64,000 bases of DNA from Candidatus Altimarinota bacterium. Lineage in GTDB: Bacteria > Patescibacteriota > Gracilibacteria > CAIRYL01 > GCA-016699755. A program made the position numbers and the translations under genes. The DNA is taken from contig OY760935.1 of assembly GCA_963664295.1 (NCBI GenBank), positions 992,001 to 1,056,000 on the forward strand, written 5' to 3'. Of this stretch, positions 19,901 through 44,367 are shown in pieces; within the stretch, counting starts at the first letter, position 1; every line of letters starts with the position of its first letter. The notes under the pieces were generated by a model, which did no database searches, had not been told where the DNA came from, and saw nothing but the letters and a program-made list of their open reading frames with translations.

Positions 19901-21097
19901 TATGAATTATCAGCCGGAGTGCGAGCTAAAGGTTGGCAAGCAGGTGTACAGACCAGACACACAGATATTCAAGACAGCATTAAGGCTAACTTGGGGATTA
20001 ATCTTACTGAAAAAGCTCAACTTAATATTGAAGGTGGAGCAACAAATATAACAGACGATATGGTTATGGAGCCTGATAATTATTATGGTCAAATTGGCGT
20101 AAGCATTCCTTTGGGTGGCTCTAAAGAAAAGTCAGTAAAACCAGTTGTAGCCTCAGCGATAGACAGCTTAAGACAAACAGTTTTTACTCACTTAGGACAT
20201 ATTGATCCAAAGCCAAAAGCGACTATGGCTATTAAAAAAACAGAAAAAGCAAATGAGGGTCCAGGGGTAATGATTATTGGTGCAAACAGAACGGTTCCAG
20301 GAAAAGCAGAAGAGTACATTGCTTCAGCATATGATTATGAGGGAGACAAGATTGTAAGTTATGATTTTAAAATTGTTAGCTCTACAGGTTTTGATGGTGG
20401 CAATATCGCTTATTGGCAACATTTTGTAGGTGAGCCACACAAAGTGAGTCTTAAATTCTCAACTCCTGACTCAGGAAATGGTAGTGCTACATTGCAATGT
20501 GTTGTCACTGATGAATATGGTAATTCAACAACAGAAACACTTTTAATTACAATTTCAGAAGGACAAAATCCAAGAAATCCTAGTAGCAACCCAAATGTTA
20601 ATCCTAAAGACGACACAGACCCAGGAAACCCTGGTAGTGACCCAAATGTTACTCCAAATGATCCAAGCAACACAGGTGATCCTAGTATTCCACCAGTAAC
20701 TCCTGGAGATGGACAAGACACAGAAAATCCTAGCACTCCACCAGTAACTCCTGGAGATGGACAAGACACAGAAAATCCTAGCACTCCACCAGTAGGCCCT
20801 GGAGATGGACAAGACACAGAAAATCCTAGCACTCCACCAGTAGGCCCTGGAGATGGACAAGACACAGAAAATCCTAGCACTCCACCAGTAACTCCTGGAG
20901 ATGGACAAGACACAGAAAATCCTAGCACTCCACCAGTAACTCCTGGAGATGGACAAGATTCAGGTGATCCTAGCACTCCACCAGTAACTCCTGGAGATGG
21001 ACAAGACACAGAAAATCCTAGCACTCCACCAGTAGGCCCTGGAGATCCAAACGATCCAAATCAACCAACTACACCACCATTTACACCTTTTGAATAA
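16994..21097 (+). CDS. Large surface protein: coiled coil, TM, two LysM-like domains, beta-strand-rich barrel-like region, Ig/PKD-like domain, Pro-rich repeats
   Basis: 1367 aa; LysM-like 'IKEGDTLGQIA...IQPGW' and 'VKKGDYLFKM...LEPGW'; amphipathic beta strands ending 'YYGQIGVSIPLG'; 'LQCVVTDEYGNST'. Confidence 0.75.
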   Translation: MKNTANKRPVDSWESAGTQKKQENLRSIEGGISSEMATAEITVERERAKTSLGVERQLAVLPSLVEDKTASLTDQQKKLAQRYCFVSNKAQESDEKLEQAEARLLEAEQKLTNNSLPAKYQKQVKAELENAQRAYEKAKKAQEKDSERLQKLLNQNGFTTLVSDLDLDNPKNKQAIAGEVNRSNVHKIKAKEGVLSVAMGKLSLATLTPLNAGEIAHAIRYCVPRDKRSRMLNNVYLYNSRALAVCELHEEIHELDKTIIPLQKAMEEVGVNDPKYAEYEDRLVKANKKSEVLNERLLKLLKKGDRLHGAIFSALKKVGVEIEQKEESEASIKASQQGILNSFKGLETKLKAGNVSAKKMEADLQPIMTHLLLLRGVTQNAKDGKLNLKAKEQKAFEILGDKLPIIEDALNSILDTLEESEQAQKTKKGFLSKVKGFLRKPKAKKVAKVAMLTMATLSVNSGIITDAVSDFFSELNDLDLGDSDFAKALQNAFAGLADGLDNIGDSALASESTTLSSGVKAEQIKEGDTLGQIADKMSVDNWQNLQVSEDGGQTWTSAEKINEYAIQPGWLVATDGAQQSAPIISNDYQTETVKKGDYLFKMLDRMPGANSLDDLEISMNGGVSWTRYGDFNNPNYLEPGWQVRTATQNISTQTASFTETHIDPPQNTEQIEVVENSGEIKLRASASVKEANLPQARPQAKEIIRADIGTATKVDSATIIVPGENDDIPGQMERRLDPVNMPQTERTFFNGNVLVGGGVSYFNGQVGSHGEAYAGGDHFAIGAEAGYASDNAYASPSAGYFSDNFDLAVKAMFAKGKLKSALSLPNGDHVFETEHTKTGVGSHLGVNLGSGPVKRAEVTLGYEKTSSEDAGSASFRADNGDLFKYDVKAEGATEKFGKVNLISNPFQLGGGWTANSNVGVLHESLNFDEPTGYKLTDNGEDFTTPVVGASVESSGKTQWKFAGEMGANYYELSAGVRAKGWQAGVQTRHTDIQDSIKANLGINLTEKAQLNIEGGATNITDDMVMEPDNYYGQIGVSIPLGGSKEKSVKPVVASAIDSLRQTVFTHLGHIDPKPKATMAIKKTEKANEGPGVMIIGANRTVPGKAEEYIASAYDYEGDKIVSYDFKIVSSTGFDGGNIAYWQHFVGEPHKVSLKFSTPDSGNGSATLQCVVTDEYGNSTTETLLITISEGQNPRNPSSNPNVNPKDDTDPGNPGSDPNVTPNDPSNTGDPSIPPVTPGDGQDTENPSTPPVTPGDGQDTENPSTPPVGPGDGQDTENPSTPPVGPGDGQDTENPSTPPVTPGDGQDTENPSTPPVTPGDGQDSGDPSTPPVTPGDGQDTENPSTPPVGPGDPNDPNQPTTPPFTPFE
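20681..21046 (+). repeat. Coding 48-bp tandem repeat (~7.6 copies; PSTPPV[T/G]PGDGQDTEN)
   Basis: Units start at 20681, 20729, 20777, 20825, 20873, 20921, 20969, 21017. Confidence 0.95.
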
Positions 21098-41401: not shown

Positions 41402-42694
41402 TTAGTTCACAATTGCTTCAAGGGGGCTAATTTTTGCTGATTTACGAGCAGGAAAAAGCGTAGCAACAAAAGAGGCCAAAATCACTACTGCAAAAATCCA
41501 CAAAAATATATTAAGTGATAATGGAAAAAATGTTTCAGGCTTAATAGAAATATCAGGAATTTTACTTAAAATAAAATTATCCAAGACTATACTAAAAAAA
41601 GTACCAATAAATAAACCTAAAAAAGCACCAATAGCACCCAAAATAACACCCTGGGTAATAAAAATAGCAAAAATAGTCCCTTTTGGCGCGCCAATAGAGT
41701 TTAAAATGCCAATAGTCTGCTTTTGTTCAATTACAGAAACAGAAATTAAAGAAAACATAGACAAAAGAGAAACAAAAATAATCAGAGTAGCGGTTAAAAG
41801 CAAAGTCACGCGTAAAGATAAAATTAATGTCAAAATTTCTTCTCCAACTTCACCAAAAGTTTTTGCTTTTAATCCCATAGTAGTAATTTTTTCTTGAAGA
41901 CTTTTAACCTCATCAACATTATTTGCTTCTATATAAGCCTGAGAAAAAGAAGGATTTTCGTTTATTTTTCTTCCTAGTTTTTCAGAAACATCAAAAGCAG
42001 TTTCTATAGGAATAGAAACACCTAAAGGAGGAGCGCGTGGCGAAATAACCTTAATTTGTGCACTTCTGTAAATAGGCTCAGTATCACCGAGAGTAAAAAC
42101 AGTAGATTTACCAAAGATTAATTGAAATCTTTTGTCTTGTAAATTTTCTGCTTTGAGATGTGGTATTTCCTTAACAGTTTCTGCCAAAGAACTATTAAAA
42201 ACATCAATGATGTAGGGAGAAACAGCAATGGGAACCATAATTTCATCTTCACCTCTAATAAATTCTTTAAATTCATCAGGTTGATCAAGTCCAAAAATTT
42301 CTTTATCCACAGCATAAACAGGAGTATCGGTCTCAAAAGTAAAGCCAAACATCCAAACTTTGAGCGAAGATGGATAATCAAGTGTCAAAACACGAGCAAC
42401 ATTTTTAACTTCAGGGAAAGTTTTGATTTCATCAATCGCCTCTTGGTCAAGAGTTTTGCCCTGGTTGATGTCTAAAAAACCCAAAGAAAAATAATCATTA
42501 CTTACGATTAAAGTTTCTGGACTGGTTGTTTCGCGGATTGGTCTTAAAAGAAAATCCTGTATTCCTTCAGAAAAAACAAAAAACAAAAAAAGCACCATTG
42601 TGCCAATTAAAACACTAAAAGAAACCAAAAAATTACGCGTTTTTTTGGCAGAAATTAGCCTTAGTGAAAAATTTAATATATTTAAAAAACTCAT
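41402..42694 (-). CDS. ABC transporter permease, FtsX/MacB/LolE family
   Basis: N-terminal TM, large extracytoplasmic loop, 'EQKQTIGILNSIGA', 'PARKSAKISPLEAI'; start at ATG 42694. Confidence 0.88.
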   Translation of the reverse strand: MSFLNILNFSLRLISAKKTRNFLVSFSVLIGTMVLFLFFVFSEGIQDFLLRPIRETTSPETLIVSNDYFSLGFLDINQGKTLDQEAIDEIKTFPEVKNVARVLTLDYPSSLKVWMFGFTFETDTPVYAVDKEIFGLDQPDEFKEFIRGEDEIMVPIAVSPYIIDVFNSSLAETVKEIPHLKAENLQDKRFQLIFGKSTVFTLGDTEPIYRSAQIKVISPRAPPLGVSIPIETAFDVSEKLGRKINENPSFSQAYIEANNVDEVKSLQEKITTMGLKAKTFGEVGEEILTLILSLRVTLLLTATLIIFVSLLSMFSLISVSVIEQKQTIGILNSIGAPKGTIFAIFITQGVILGAIGAFLGLFIGTFFSIVLDNFILSKIPDISIKPETFFPLSLNIFLWIFAVVILASFVATLFPARKSAKISPLEAIVN

Positions 42695-42802
42695 CTTAGT
42701 TTGTATTTTCTCATTCAAAGCATGCTTTATCAAGAAGAGAACAAAAACTCTTTTCAAATTGGTCAAAAAATGGCAAACTGCCTTAGCAACAAATTATTTT
42801 GT

Positions 42803-42880
42803 GGCGACTGTAGCTCAGTTGGTTAGAGCGCCGGATTGTGGCTCCGGAGGTCGTGGGTTCGAACCCCATCAGTCGCCCCA
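42803..42880 (+). tRNA. tRNA-His(GTG) with G-1 and encoded CCA
   Basis: G-GCGACTG...CAGTCGC-C-CCA; anticodon arm CCGGA-TTGTGGC-TCCGG; GGTTCGAA. Confidence 0.97.
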
Positions 42881-43273
42881 TGAATATCTTTAAACATGTG
42901 CCACAATCAAGATTGCGTCTTCGCGGAGCTAGTGGTTATCTACCCCCATCAGTCGCCCCATGAATATCTTTAAACATGTGCCACAATCAAGATTGCGTCT
43001 TCGCGGAGCTAGTGGTTATCTACCCCCATCAGTCGCCCCATGAATATCTTTAAACATGTGCCACAATCAAGATTGCGTCTTCGCGGAGCTAGTGGTTATC
43101 TACCCCCATCAGTCGCCCCATGAATATCTTTAAACATGTGCCACAATCAAGATTGCGTCTTCGCGGAGCTAGTGGTTATCTACCCCCATCAGTCGCCCCA
43201 TGAATATCTTTAAACATGTGCCACAATCAAGATTGCGTCTTCGCGGAGCTAGTGGTTATCTACCCCCATCAGT
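42864..43273 (+). repeat. Five identical 80-bp tandem repeats plus a 10-bp partial, each beginning with the last 17 nt of tRNA-His
   Basis: Units at 42864, 42944, 43024, 43104, 43184, partial at 43264; unit = CCCCATCAGTCGCCCCATGAATATCTTTAAACATGTGCCACAATCAAGATTGCGTCTTCGCGGAGCTAGTGGTTATCTAC. Confidence 0.97.
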
Positions 43274-43342
43274 TTTTTGGCTTGCACAGCTGATTAACAG
43301 CCATTAAACTAAAATGCGTTATATTGTTTTTTAAAAACAAAA

Positions 43343-43741
43343 ATGAACAGCAAATCCCCTAACTTAAGAGTGTTATTAGTTTGCAAACAAGAAGAAGAGG
43401 ATTGCTTAAAAACAGAACAAAAAGAACAAGAAACAATAAACCCAATTGAAAAAATAATTGAACAAACACAAGAAATAATGCGAAGTAATACAAAAAGTTT
43501 TCCGCTTGAAATTGGACTTCATTTACACAAAGCAGGGAATGGTTGTTCTGCACAAGATGAACAAAAAATGTTGGAAGAAATTGTCAAATCTCCAGAAAAT
43601 TTAATTTTAATGACAAGAGCAGTAAAATTATCAGAACCTTGGAAAAGTTTGATGAAAAAAAATGTTTTTATGCTTGATGAACTAAGCCCAGTTCATATTA
43701 TGATTATGATTAAGGGCTATCTTGCCTCCATAAGACTTTAA
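43343..43741 (+). CDS. Hypothetical protein
   Basis: 132-aa ORF between two tRNA genes; TTGCAC-17-TAAACT upstream. Confidence 0.6.
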   Translation: MNSKSPNLRVLLVCKQEEEDCLKTEQKEQETINPIEKIIEQTQEIMRSNTKSFPLEIGLHLHKAGNGCSAQDEQKMLEEIVKSPENLILMTRAVKLSEPWKSLMKKNVFMLDELSPVHIMIMIKGYLASIRL

Positions 43742-43798
43742 TTATTATAAAAAACCTTGCTTTTTTTAATAAAAATAATAAAATAATCAAGCTTGTTT

Positions 43799-43875
43799 GG
43801 TCGTATAGCTCAGCTGGTTAGAGCGCTACACTGATAATGTAGAGGTCCCTGGTTCAAGTCCAGGTACGACCACCA
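43799..43875 (+). tRNA. tRNA-Ile(GAT)
   Basis: GGTCGTA...TACGACC-A-CCA; anticodon arm CTACA-CTGATAA-TGTAG. Confidence 0.97.
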
Positions 43876-43899
43876 GAGATTTTTTGATTTGTTTTTACT

Positions 43900-44006
43900 T
43901 GTCATTCTGAACTTGATTCAGAATCTTTTGGTGACATTATTGTCAGCAATTTATTTTATAGCTTAAATAATGTCCAAGGAGATTGCGGGTCAAGCCCGCA
44001 ATGACA
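43900..44006. repeat. REP/REPIN-like palindromic element
   Basis: TGTCATTCTGAACTTGATTCAGAATCT ... AGATTGCGGGTCAAGCCCGCAATGACA: two hairpins in inverted orientation with TGTCATT/AATGACA ends. Confidence 0.7.
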
Positions 44007-44070
44007 TTTAAATATTATTGTGATTTTATTTTTGGTTTGATATATATAAATTGATTTTTAAAATAAACAT

Positions 44071-44367
44071 ATGGTAAAGATTAAGAATTTAAACAAATTA
44101 GACATGCTGGCTTGTTTTTTAGTTGGACAAAAAAATAGCATAAATGATGCCCCTGAGGAAAAATTTTTAGTTTTAACATATTGGACATCGTGCGCAAATG
44201 TTTCTGTTATTTTTGCAACTATTTTTTCAAGTATGTCTATTGTTTTGTTTATAGAAATAGAAACTAATCTAGTTGTAATTCCTTTTTTTATAGCCTTTAT
44301 ATGGTTTTCTTTGAGGGCTTGGGCATTTGGTAGATGTGCTAAGATTGCATGTAAAATTTGGCTTTAA
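44071..44367 (+). CDS. Hypothetical small membrane protein
   Basis: 98-aa ORF with two hydrophobic segments. Confidence 0.5.
   Translation: MVKIKNLNKLDMLACFLVGQKNSINDAPEEKFLVLTYWTSCANVSVIFATIFSSMSIVLFIEIETNLVVIPFFIAFIWFSLRAWAFGRCAKIACKIWL

Follow-up and report, generated by a model that had tools for sequence, protein, structure and literature searches.

A gene-free tandem repeat behind tRNA-His in a Gracilibacteria genome, possibly seeded by a small GIY-YIG nuclease encoded elsewhere

The tRNA-His gene of the Candidatus Altimarinota bacterium described here is directly followed by a tandem array of 80-bp units, the spacers of which derive from that same tRNA. We favor, at about even confidence, the reading that the array is a gene-free tRNA-linked repeat, likely seeded in trans by a nuclease and likely amplified by recombination or slippage between the repeated tRNA tails. 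The array lies in the window, i.e., the whole 64,000-nucleotide stretch of DNA that was analyzed (contig OY760935.1, positions 992,001 to 1,056,000), and positions below refer to this window unless they are given as genome positions. The genome is a single contig of 1,215,430 bases (33.5% GC; 100% complete), and genomes of the host's phylum measure 0.4 to 2.1 Mb.

The tRNA-His(GUG) gene, which encodes its CCA, occupies 42803..42880 on the plus strand (ARAGORN, 42804-42880, with G-1 at 42803), the strand on which all parts of the array are described. Its last 17 nucleotides (42864..42880), comprising the last T-loop base, the 3' strand of the T-stem, the acceptor strand, and CCA, form the repeated tail. 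Counted from this tail, five 80-bp units that are 100% identical extend from 42864 to 43263; both these units and their 17-nt overlap with the 3' end of tRNA-His had been called in the original prediction, and the sequence bears them out, with short-read depth being consistent with the copy number. Counted from CCA to CCA, the array consists of four complete units, each with a 63-nt spacer and an exact 17-nt tail identical to the end of the upstream gene (unit 1, 42881..42960; units 2 to 4, identical to it, 42961..43040, 43041..43120, and 43121..43200), and of a distal unit (43201..43273) with the same spacer, in which the identity to the gene is limited to 10 bp and the CCA is missing. Since the first tail belongs to the tRNA itself and the distal tail lacks CCA, only four CCA ends are regenerated, instead of the five originally announced. 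As to the end of the array, the 10-nt partial copy up to 43273 and the T run behind it are present as described; the trailer (43274..43310), which combines this T run with a weak inverted repeat, is not terminator-like, however, and no terminator-like site was found on the plus strand between 42500 and 44100, either after the tRNA or after the array.

The 63 nucleotides of each spacer, first listed simply as other sequence, turned out to be tRNA derived. In unit 1, an AT-rich leader of 19 nt (42881..42899) is followed by a 9-nt stretch, GCCACAATC (42900..42908), that repeats the region of the anticodon loop (positions 31 to 39 of the tRNA, i.e., 42834-42842) in antisense, by two A residues, and by a 33-nt mutated sense copy of tRNA positions 31 to 60 (42911..42943), in which the anticodon and the T-loop are altered and which contains the 15-nt motif TCGCGRAGCTAGYRG. 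The sense copy matches the tRNA in 23 of 33 columns, a score reached by 21 of 5,000 dinucleotide shuffles, and the antisense match was likewise reached by 21 of 5,000. When compared with all 37 tRNAs of the genome, the spacer was most similar to its own (score, 20; next best, 17). As in the tRNA-lodged GIY-YIG cassettes described below, the tRNA copy is incomplete and its loop is disrupted at the junction. The unit cannot form an acceptor stem; its predicted fold is not better than that of shuffled sequences, either as RNA (z, +1.4) or as DNA (z, +1.0). We also considered, and dropped, what looked like an antisense match in register with the D-stem. There is no open reading frame (ORF) inside the 80-bp unit, and an Rfam search over 42500-44200 returned only the two tRNAs above the cutoff, with no family match for the unit. 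A CRISPR array was rejected, as all spacers are identical and no Rfam CRISPR match was obtained.

Because all copies are identical and none of the listed short-read contigs spans the array, one might suspect that the assembler had expanded a single unit. We hold this to be extremely improbable. In each of three short-read runs from one sample, a 110-nt contig was found that matches the unit without any differing letter, and this length (80 plus 30) is exactly that of a single passage around an 80-bp cycle with 31-mers. Its depth was 104, 66.2, and 111.9 in the three runs, while the contig leaving the array had, as read from the difference of bins, a depth of 23.4 in run X1 and 14.6 in run X2, where the exit from the array into the T run is visible as a loose end. 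The resulting ratios of 4.4 (X1) and 4.5 (X2), compared with 4.75 expected for 5.1 units, come from independently assembled data, although the three runs may themselves be the source of the assembly and the comparison extended over tRNA-His plus about 1.4 units. With a single copy, a cycle contig at some 4.5 times the exit depth would not arise; the data contradict the collapse to one copy that had been envisaged and argue that the array is real; as far as testable, it is not an assembly artifact. In run X5, from another study, only tRNA-His was covered, and runs from other studies contributed small shares.

The same layout is seen in the second unit behind the initiator tRNA-Met gene (genome position 419,414, minus strand), where an AT-rich leader, a stretch antisense to the anticodon arm, AA, a mutated sense copy, and an exact 20-nt tail follow one another; among the 37 tRNAs, this spacer also matches its own best (score, 22; next best, 9). 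The motif TCGCGRAGCTAGYRG, which was defined from the His and fMet units themselves, is present in both units and absent from both tRNAs; it does not occur anywhere else in the genome, and 400 other genomes of the class gave 0 matches. Its variable letters follow each unit's own tRNA, and the two units differ from their tRNAs by the same changes. Since the similarity of the two spacers as a whole (31, reached by 15 of 5,000 shuffles) does not exceed that of the two tRNAs (32), it is on these shared changes that the argument for sister units rests. No unit of this layout was found elsewhere in the genomes of the class and phylum or in a metagenome scan, so that its origin has to be read from two examples. 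The antisense-plus-sense pattern of the fMet unit was encountered in 1 of 400 other phylum genomes, away from any tRNA, with one match in the control, and searching metagenomes for His tails duplicated at a distance of 50 to 80 nt yielded two matches, both to an unrelated 12-bp minisatellite.

At tRNA-His of relatives, no such tail repeat was seen in the genomes examined. In the syntenic relative G004, tRNA-His is present without an array, and the match between its trailer and the His spacer was not beyond chance (reached by 34 of 500 shuffles). At this site (L002:1226-1501), tRNA-His and tRNA-Ile are convergent, and the spacer that separates them is rich in hairpins but has no tail repeat.

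Within the genome, exact duplications of a tRNA end (at least 12 nt, within 600 nt) affect 20 of the 37 tRNAs, at the 3' end in 16 cases and at the 5' end in 8, compared with 1 of 1,322 mismatched tRNA-flank pairs that served as a control. Twelve of the 27 long tandem repeats (period of at least 50, 95% identity) overlap tRNA ends; because the other 15 lie away from tRNAs, amplification needs no tRNA-specific enzyme. The longer 3' units (154 to 189 bp) combine a hairpin with an antisense and a sense copy of the T-arm, the latter being interrupted in its T-loop by a cluster of hairpins, and these long, structured units may represent a separate family with another mobilizer. A small hairpin motif (GCT..AGC) was dropped from consideration, with 13 of its 134 matches being near tRNAs.

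Several individual loci deserve mention. Units of 173 to 189 bp are found at tRNA-Gln (genome positions 779867 and 1081350), tRNA-Ser (606549 and 1068128), tRNA-Arg (488826), and tRNA-Gly (32591), with a layout and some sequence like those of the Escherichia coli tyrT/tyrV repeats. Perfect 80- and 85-bp arrays with tails of 35 to 37 nt, in which a D-arm antisense stretch is found and the anticodon loop is altered, follow tRNA-Glu(CUC) and tRNA-Phe (genome positions 559202-559476 and 965447-965655), and a Phe unit of similar kind adjoins a GIY-YIG gene in a related locus (L039). Upstream tandem copies of tRNA 5' ends (15 to 27 nt, with a degenerate continuation) are present at Leu 97466, Ser 274706, fMet 419414, Tyr 591493, Ser 606549, Ser 1068128, and Gly 32591. 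Finally, a 154-bp tandem (2.8 copies; genome positions 360772-361200) seems to repeat the beginning of a protein gene, and end duplications may therefore not be confined to tRNAs.

One of the duplicated tRNA ends contains a gene. At tRNA-Pro, a predicted 82-amino-acid GIY-YIG nuclease, whose closest solved structures are UPF0213 proteins, is encoded in both copies of a 321-bp tandem (genome positions 482683-483373), the junction of which is the tRNA-Pro 5' end; the tandem opens with the 5'-terminal 29 nt of tRNA-Pro, together with a pseudo-tRNA in which a GC-rich hairpin has replaced the anticodon arm. An older, decayed copy is located upstream of this tandem, and the same arrangement of nuclease and tRNA-Pro recurs in two other genomes (G010 and G032). 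Among 104 related nuclease loci (29 from the class and 75 from many phyla), a tRNA was present at a distance of up to 400 bp in 88, and part of a tRNA was duplicated in 78. In two cases (L046 and L085), tail arrays that contain no gene have the same inserted hairpin as the nuclease cassette located at the same tRNA. In seven other genomes, chosen by assembly quality and nuclease hits before any tRNA flanks were counted, duplicated tRNAs numbered 0 of 37 and 0 of 36 with no nuclease hit, 1 of 41 and 5 of 37 with one hit, 5 of 40 with two, and 16 of 47 and 6 of 45 with four (Spearman coefficient, 0.81; P = 0.026; n = 7, the genomes being related), a correlation that could reflect a general load of mobile DNA. 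A CCGCC/GGCGG hairpin is found in 49 of the 104 nuclease loci, in 0 of 45 control loci, and at 2 of the 20 duplicated tRNAs of this genome. Among the literature matches listed, we found no published work on tRNA-lodged GIY-YIG cassettes in bacteria.

The course of events that we infer for tRNA-His has three steps. A single event would have placed the mutated partial tRNA copy behind the gene, probably during repair of a cut for which a small GIY-YIG nuclease of the tRNA-Pro type, acting in trans, was likely responsible. This first insertion, likely preserved as the distal unit, would have left a 10-bp repeat with the T-stem of the gene. A duplication between that repeat and the gene would then have copied the gene's intact tail, and recombination or slippage between tails of 10 to 17 bp would have brought the array to five copies; RecA is present in the genome, and a search for MutS found none. 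Duplication of the gene's own tail would explain why the units are identical, why four of them end in CCA, and why the distal end does not. The edits shared by the His and fMet units would fit the loss of a putative recognition site. The amplification of a minimal element, which the original prediction had offered as one possibility, holds. Against the nuclease as the trigger stands the fact that the His unit contains neither a nuclease ORF nor the CCGCC/GGCGG hairpin, the cassette copies of this genome being located at tRNA-Pro, and that the link to the nuclease is indirect. Since the array leaves the tRNA gene undamaged, it would be tolerated as passenger DNA, and taken alone it probably is just that.

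An accident without any enzyme might leave a similar structure: after a fold-back at the anticodon hairpin, a template switch would produce an antisense-plus-sense copy, which would decay and be amplified by slippage. The order of the pieces, antisense before sense, is the expected one and recurs at the Phe, Glu, Val, Ala, and Met units; in addition, no MutS domain was found in the complete genome, and perfect tandems also occur away from tRNAs. We nevertheless regard this scenario as rather unlikely, for it leaves unexplained both the identical changes in the His and fMet units and the complete lack of duplications at the 73 tRNAs of the two genomes without nuclease hits, and the antisense part is limited to 9 nt, with no continuous inverted copy.

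Integration offers another alternative. At sites of integration into tRNA genes, a tail like the present one of 17 nt, beginning at the T-loop, is typical, and in this duplicated 3' tail the array resembles tRNA-integrated genomic islands and tandem att scars. An integrase-borne element might thus have inserted at the T-loop, lost its cargo, and been amplified or serially reinserted, possibly by a Xer-like recombinase of the host, and one tyrosine recombinase does exist. That protein (306 amino acids, Xer-like), however, is the sole one of its kind in the genome, is encoded 123 kb from the array, and is not located beside a tRNA; large serine recombinases, Y1 transposases, and reverse transcriptases were not found in the complete genome. 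Unlike integrated islands, the array has identical units, no cargo between att sites, and no adjacent integrase gene, no island integrase having been found; moreover, duplications at other tRNAs involve the 5' end (8 cases), and a separate integrase would be needed for every one of the 20 different tRNAs affected. Neither did the spacer have a match of 14 nt elsewhere in the genome, nor the unit a BLAST match in phage or plasmid collections, and viral contigs yielded 0 matches for a unit motif and 0 for the tRNA-His tail. Serial integration, the other origin proposed at the outset, is therefore one that we doubt strongly. An integron-like model with a folded att site was dropped, there being no integron integrase and the His unit failing to fold.

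Equally doubtful, in our judgment, is a functional role as RNA, according to which the array would be cotranscribed with the tRNA and cut at each CCA, giving small RNAs antisense to the anticodon loop and the 5' acceptor strand of tRNA-His. Read-through from tRNA-His into the array is plausible from the sequence, as no terminator-like site follows the gene, and three rRNA-linked repeats of E. coli are described as processed to small RNAs (PMC8144298). In a predicted fold of the tRNA together with unit 1, the antisense piece pairs with the anticodon arm (-53.3 kcal/mol, versus -31.0 and -9.2 apart). On the other hand, the unit by itself folds worse than shuffled sequences and the distal unit has no CCA, which together argue against selection for a CCA-ended small RNA; furthermore, there is no conservation at tRNA-His of the relatives, and copies that are identical give no sign of selection.

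Among known systems, the tRNA-linked repeats (TLRs) of E. coli come closest. According to the published description, there are 22 such repeats at ten loci (among those named are tyrT-tyrV/RttR, units of the lys operon, and rrA/B/F), with one to five per locus and tails of 18 to 19 bp; those at tRNAs have no known function, and the three behind 5S rRNA are the processed ones (PMC8144298). The two systems have in common that their units are gene free and immediately follow a tRNA gene, that a locus has one to five of them, that many tRNAs are affected, and that a copy of the tRNA's own 3' end closes each unit; they differ in the tail, which is 17 nt (10 nt distally) in the His array and 18 to 19 in E. 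coli. Unlike the E. coli repeats, the His unit is short (80 bp) and unstructured and contains a stretch antisense to the anticodon loop, with neither a hairpin cluster nor an arm that pairs with the tail. Scored as DNA, the E. coli units fold well (z, -2.6 to -4.7, versus +1.0 for the His unit), and the tyrT, tyrV, and lysQ repeats share the layout of the longer 3' units of our genome, with the tyrT unit and the Gln(CUG) unit being similar at a z of 6.8 (reached by 0 of 200 shuffles). The RtT family (RF00391) had no match in the genome. The comparison with tyrT made in the original prediction was apt: the His array works like an E. coli TLR, stands outside the RtT sequence family, and is a short, unstructured variant found at two tRNAs. 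Published work on such repeats in Patescibacteria was not found among the matches listed.

Two nuclease systems offer further parallels. SegB is a GIY-YIG homing endonuclease of the tRNA cluster of phages T4 and T6 (PMC13096335; PMC2330249), and T6 SegB is reported to cause tandem amplification of the tRNA locus via microhomology and recombination, in cis and in trans (PMC13096335), which sets a precedent for such amplification at tRNA genes by a GIY-YIG enzyme. A GIY-YIG nuclease tied to tRNA genes is common to both cases; SegB acts in phages on whole tRNA genes under selection, whereas here the locus is chromosomal, the tRNA copies are partial, and the predicted nuclease has 82 amino acids. 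Ssn nucleases are small, single-domain GIY-YIG proteins paired with NTS/SRM hairpin repeats, and tRNA does not figure in the main text of the paper on them (PMC11893778). Searching this genome with the published SRM pattern gave 0 matches, and the His unit, unlike Ssn/SRM pairs, has no such hairpin. A 95-amino-acid GIY-YIG gene of Ssn-like appearance (genome positions 622555-622842) is flanked by GTCATT...AATGAC hairpins, which are abundant in the genome and also form a cluster behind tRNA-Ile (window positions 43899-44007).

To our knowledge, the TLRs of E. coli have been unexplained since 1978, and the array adds a data point to the old question of where tRNA-linked repeats come from. We tentatively suggest, while leaning toward doubt, that TLRs might be the gene-free progeny of widespread mini GIY-YIG elements that cut tRNA genes and retailor their copy to each tRNA. 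If this is true, the present genome would display the whole series, from the nuclease cassette at tRNA-Pro through the long, structured units to the minimal His and fMet units with the same edits, and E. coli YhbQ, which is 37% identical to the tRNA-Pro nuclease (22 of 60 amino acids; E value, 5e-12), would be a candidate for the protein that generated the tyrT repeats. The E. coli yhbQ locus (L322:2467-2769) is not located beside a tRNA gene. With 20 of 37 tRNAs affected, a nuclease cassette at hand, and a trend across genomes, one mechanism becomes directly testable. A word of caution also follows, since duplicated tRNA 3' ends, which are usually taken for integrase att scars, can also arise in another way.

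Two other observations concern the window. The tRNA-Ile gene is flanked by two plus-strand ORFs without a Pfam match (43343-43741, 132 amino acids, and 44071-44367, 98 amino acids), and a 48-bp tandem repeat with 7.7 copies at 93% identity, located at 20679-21046, is probably coding.
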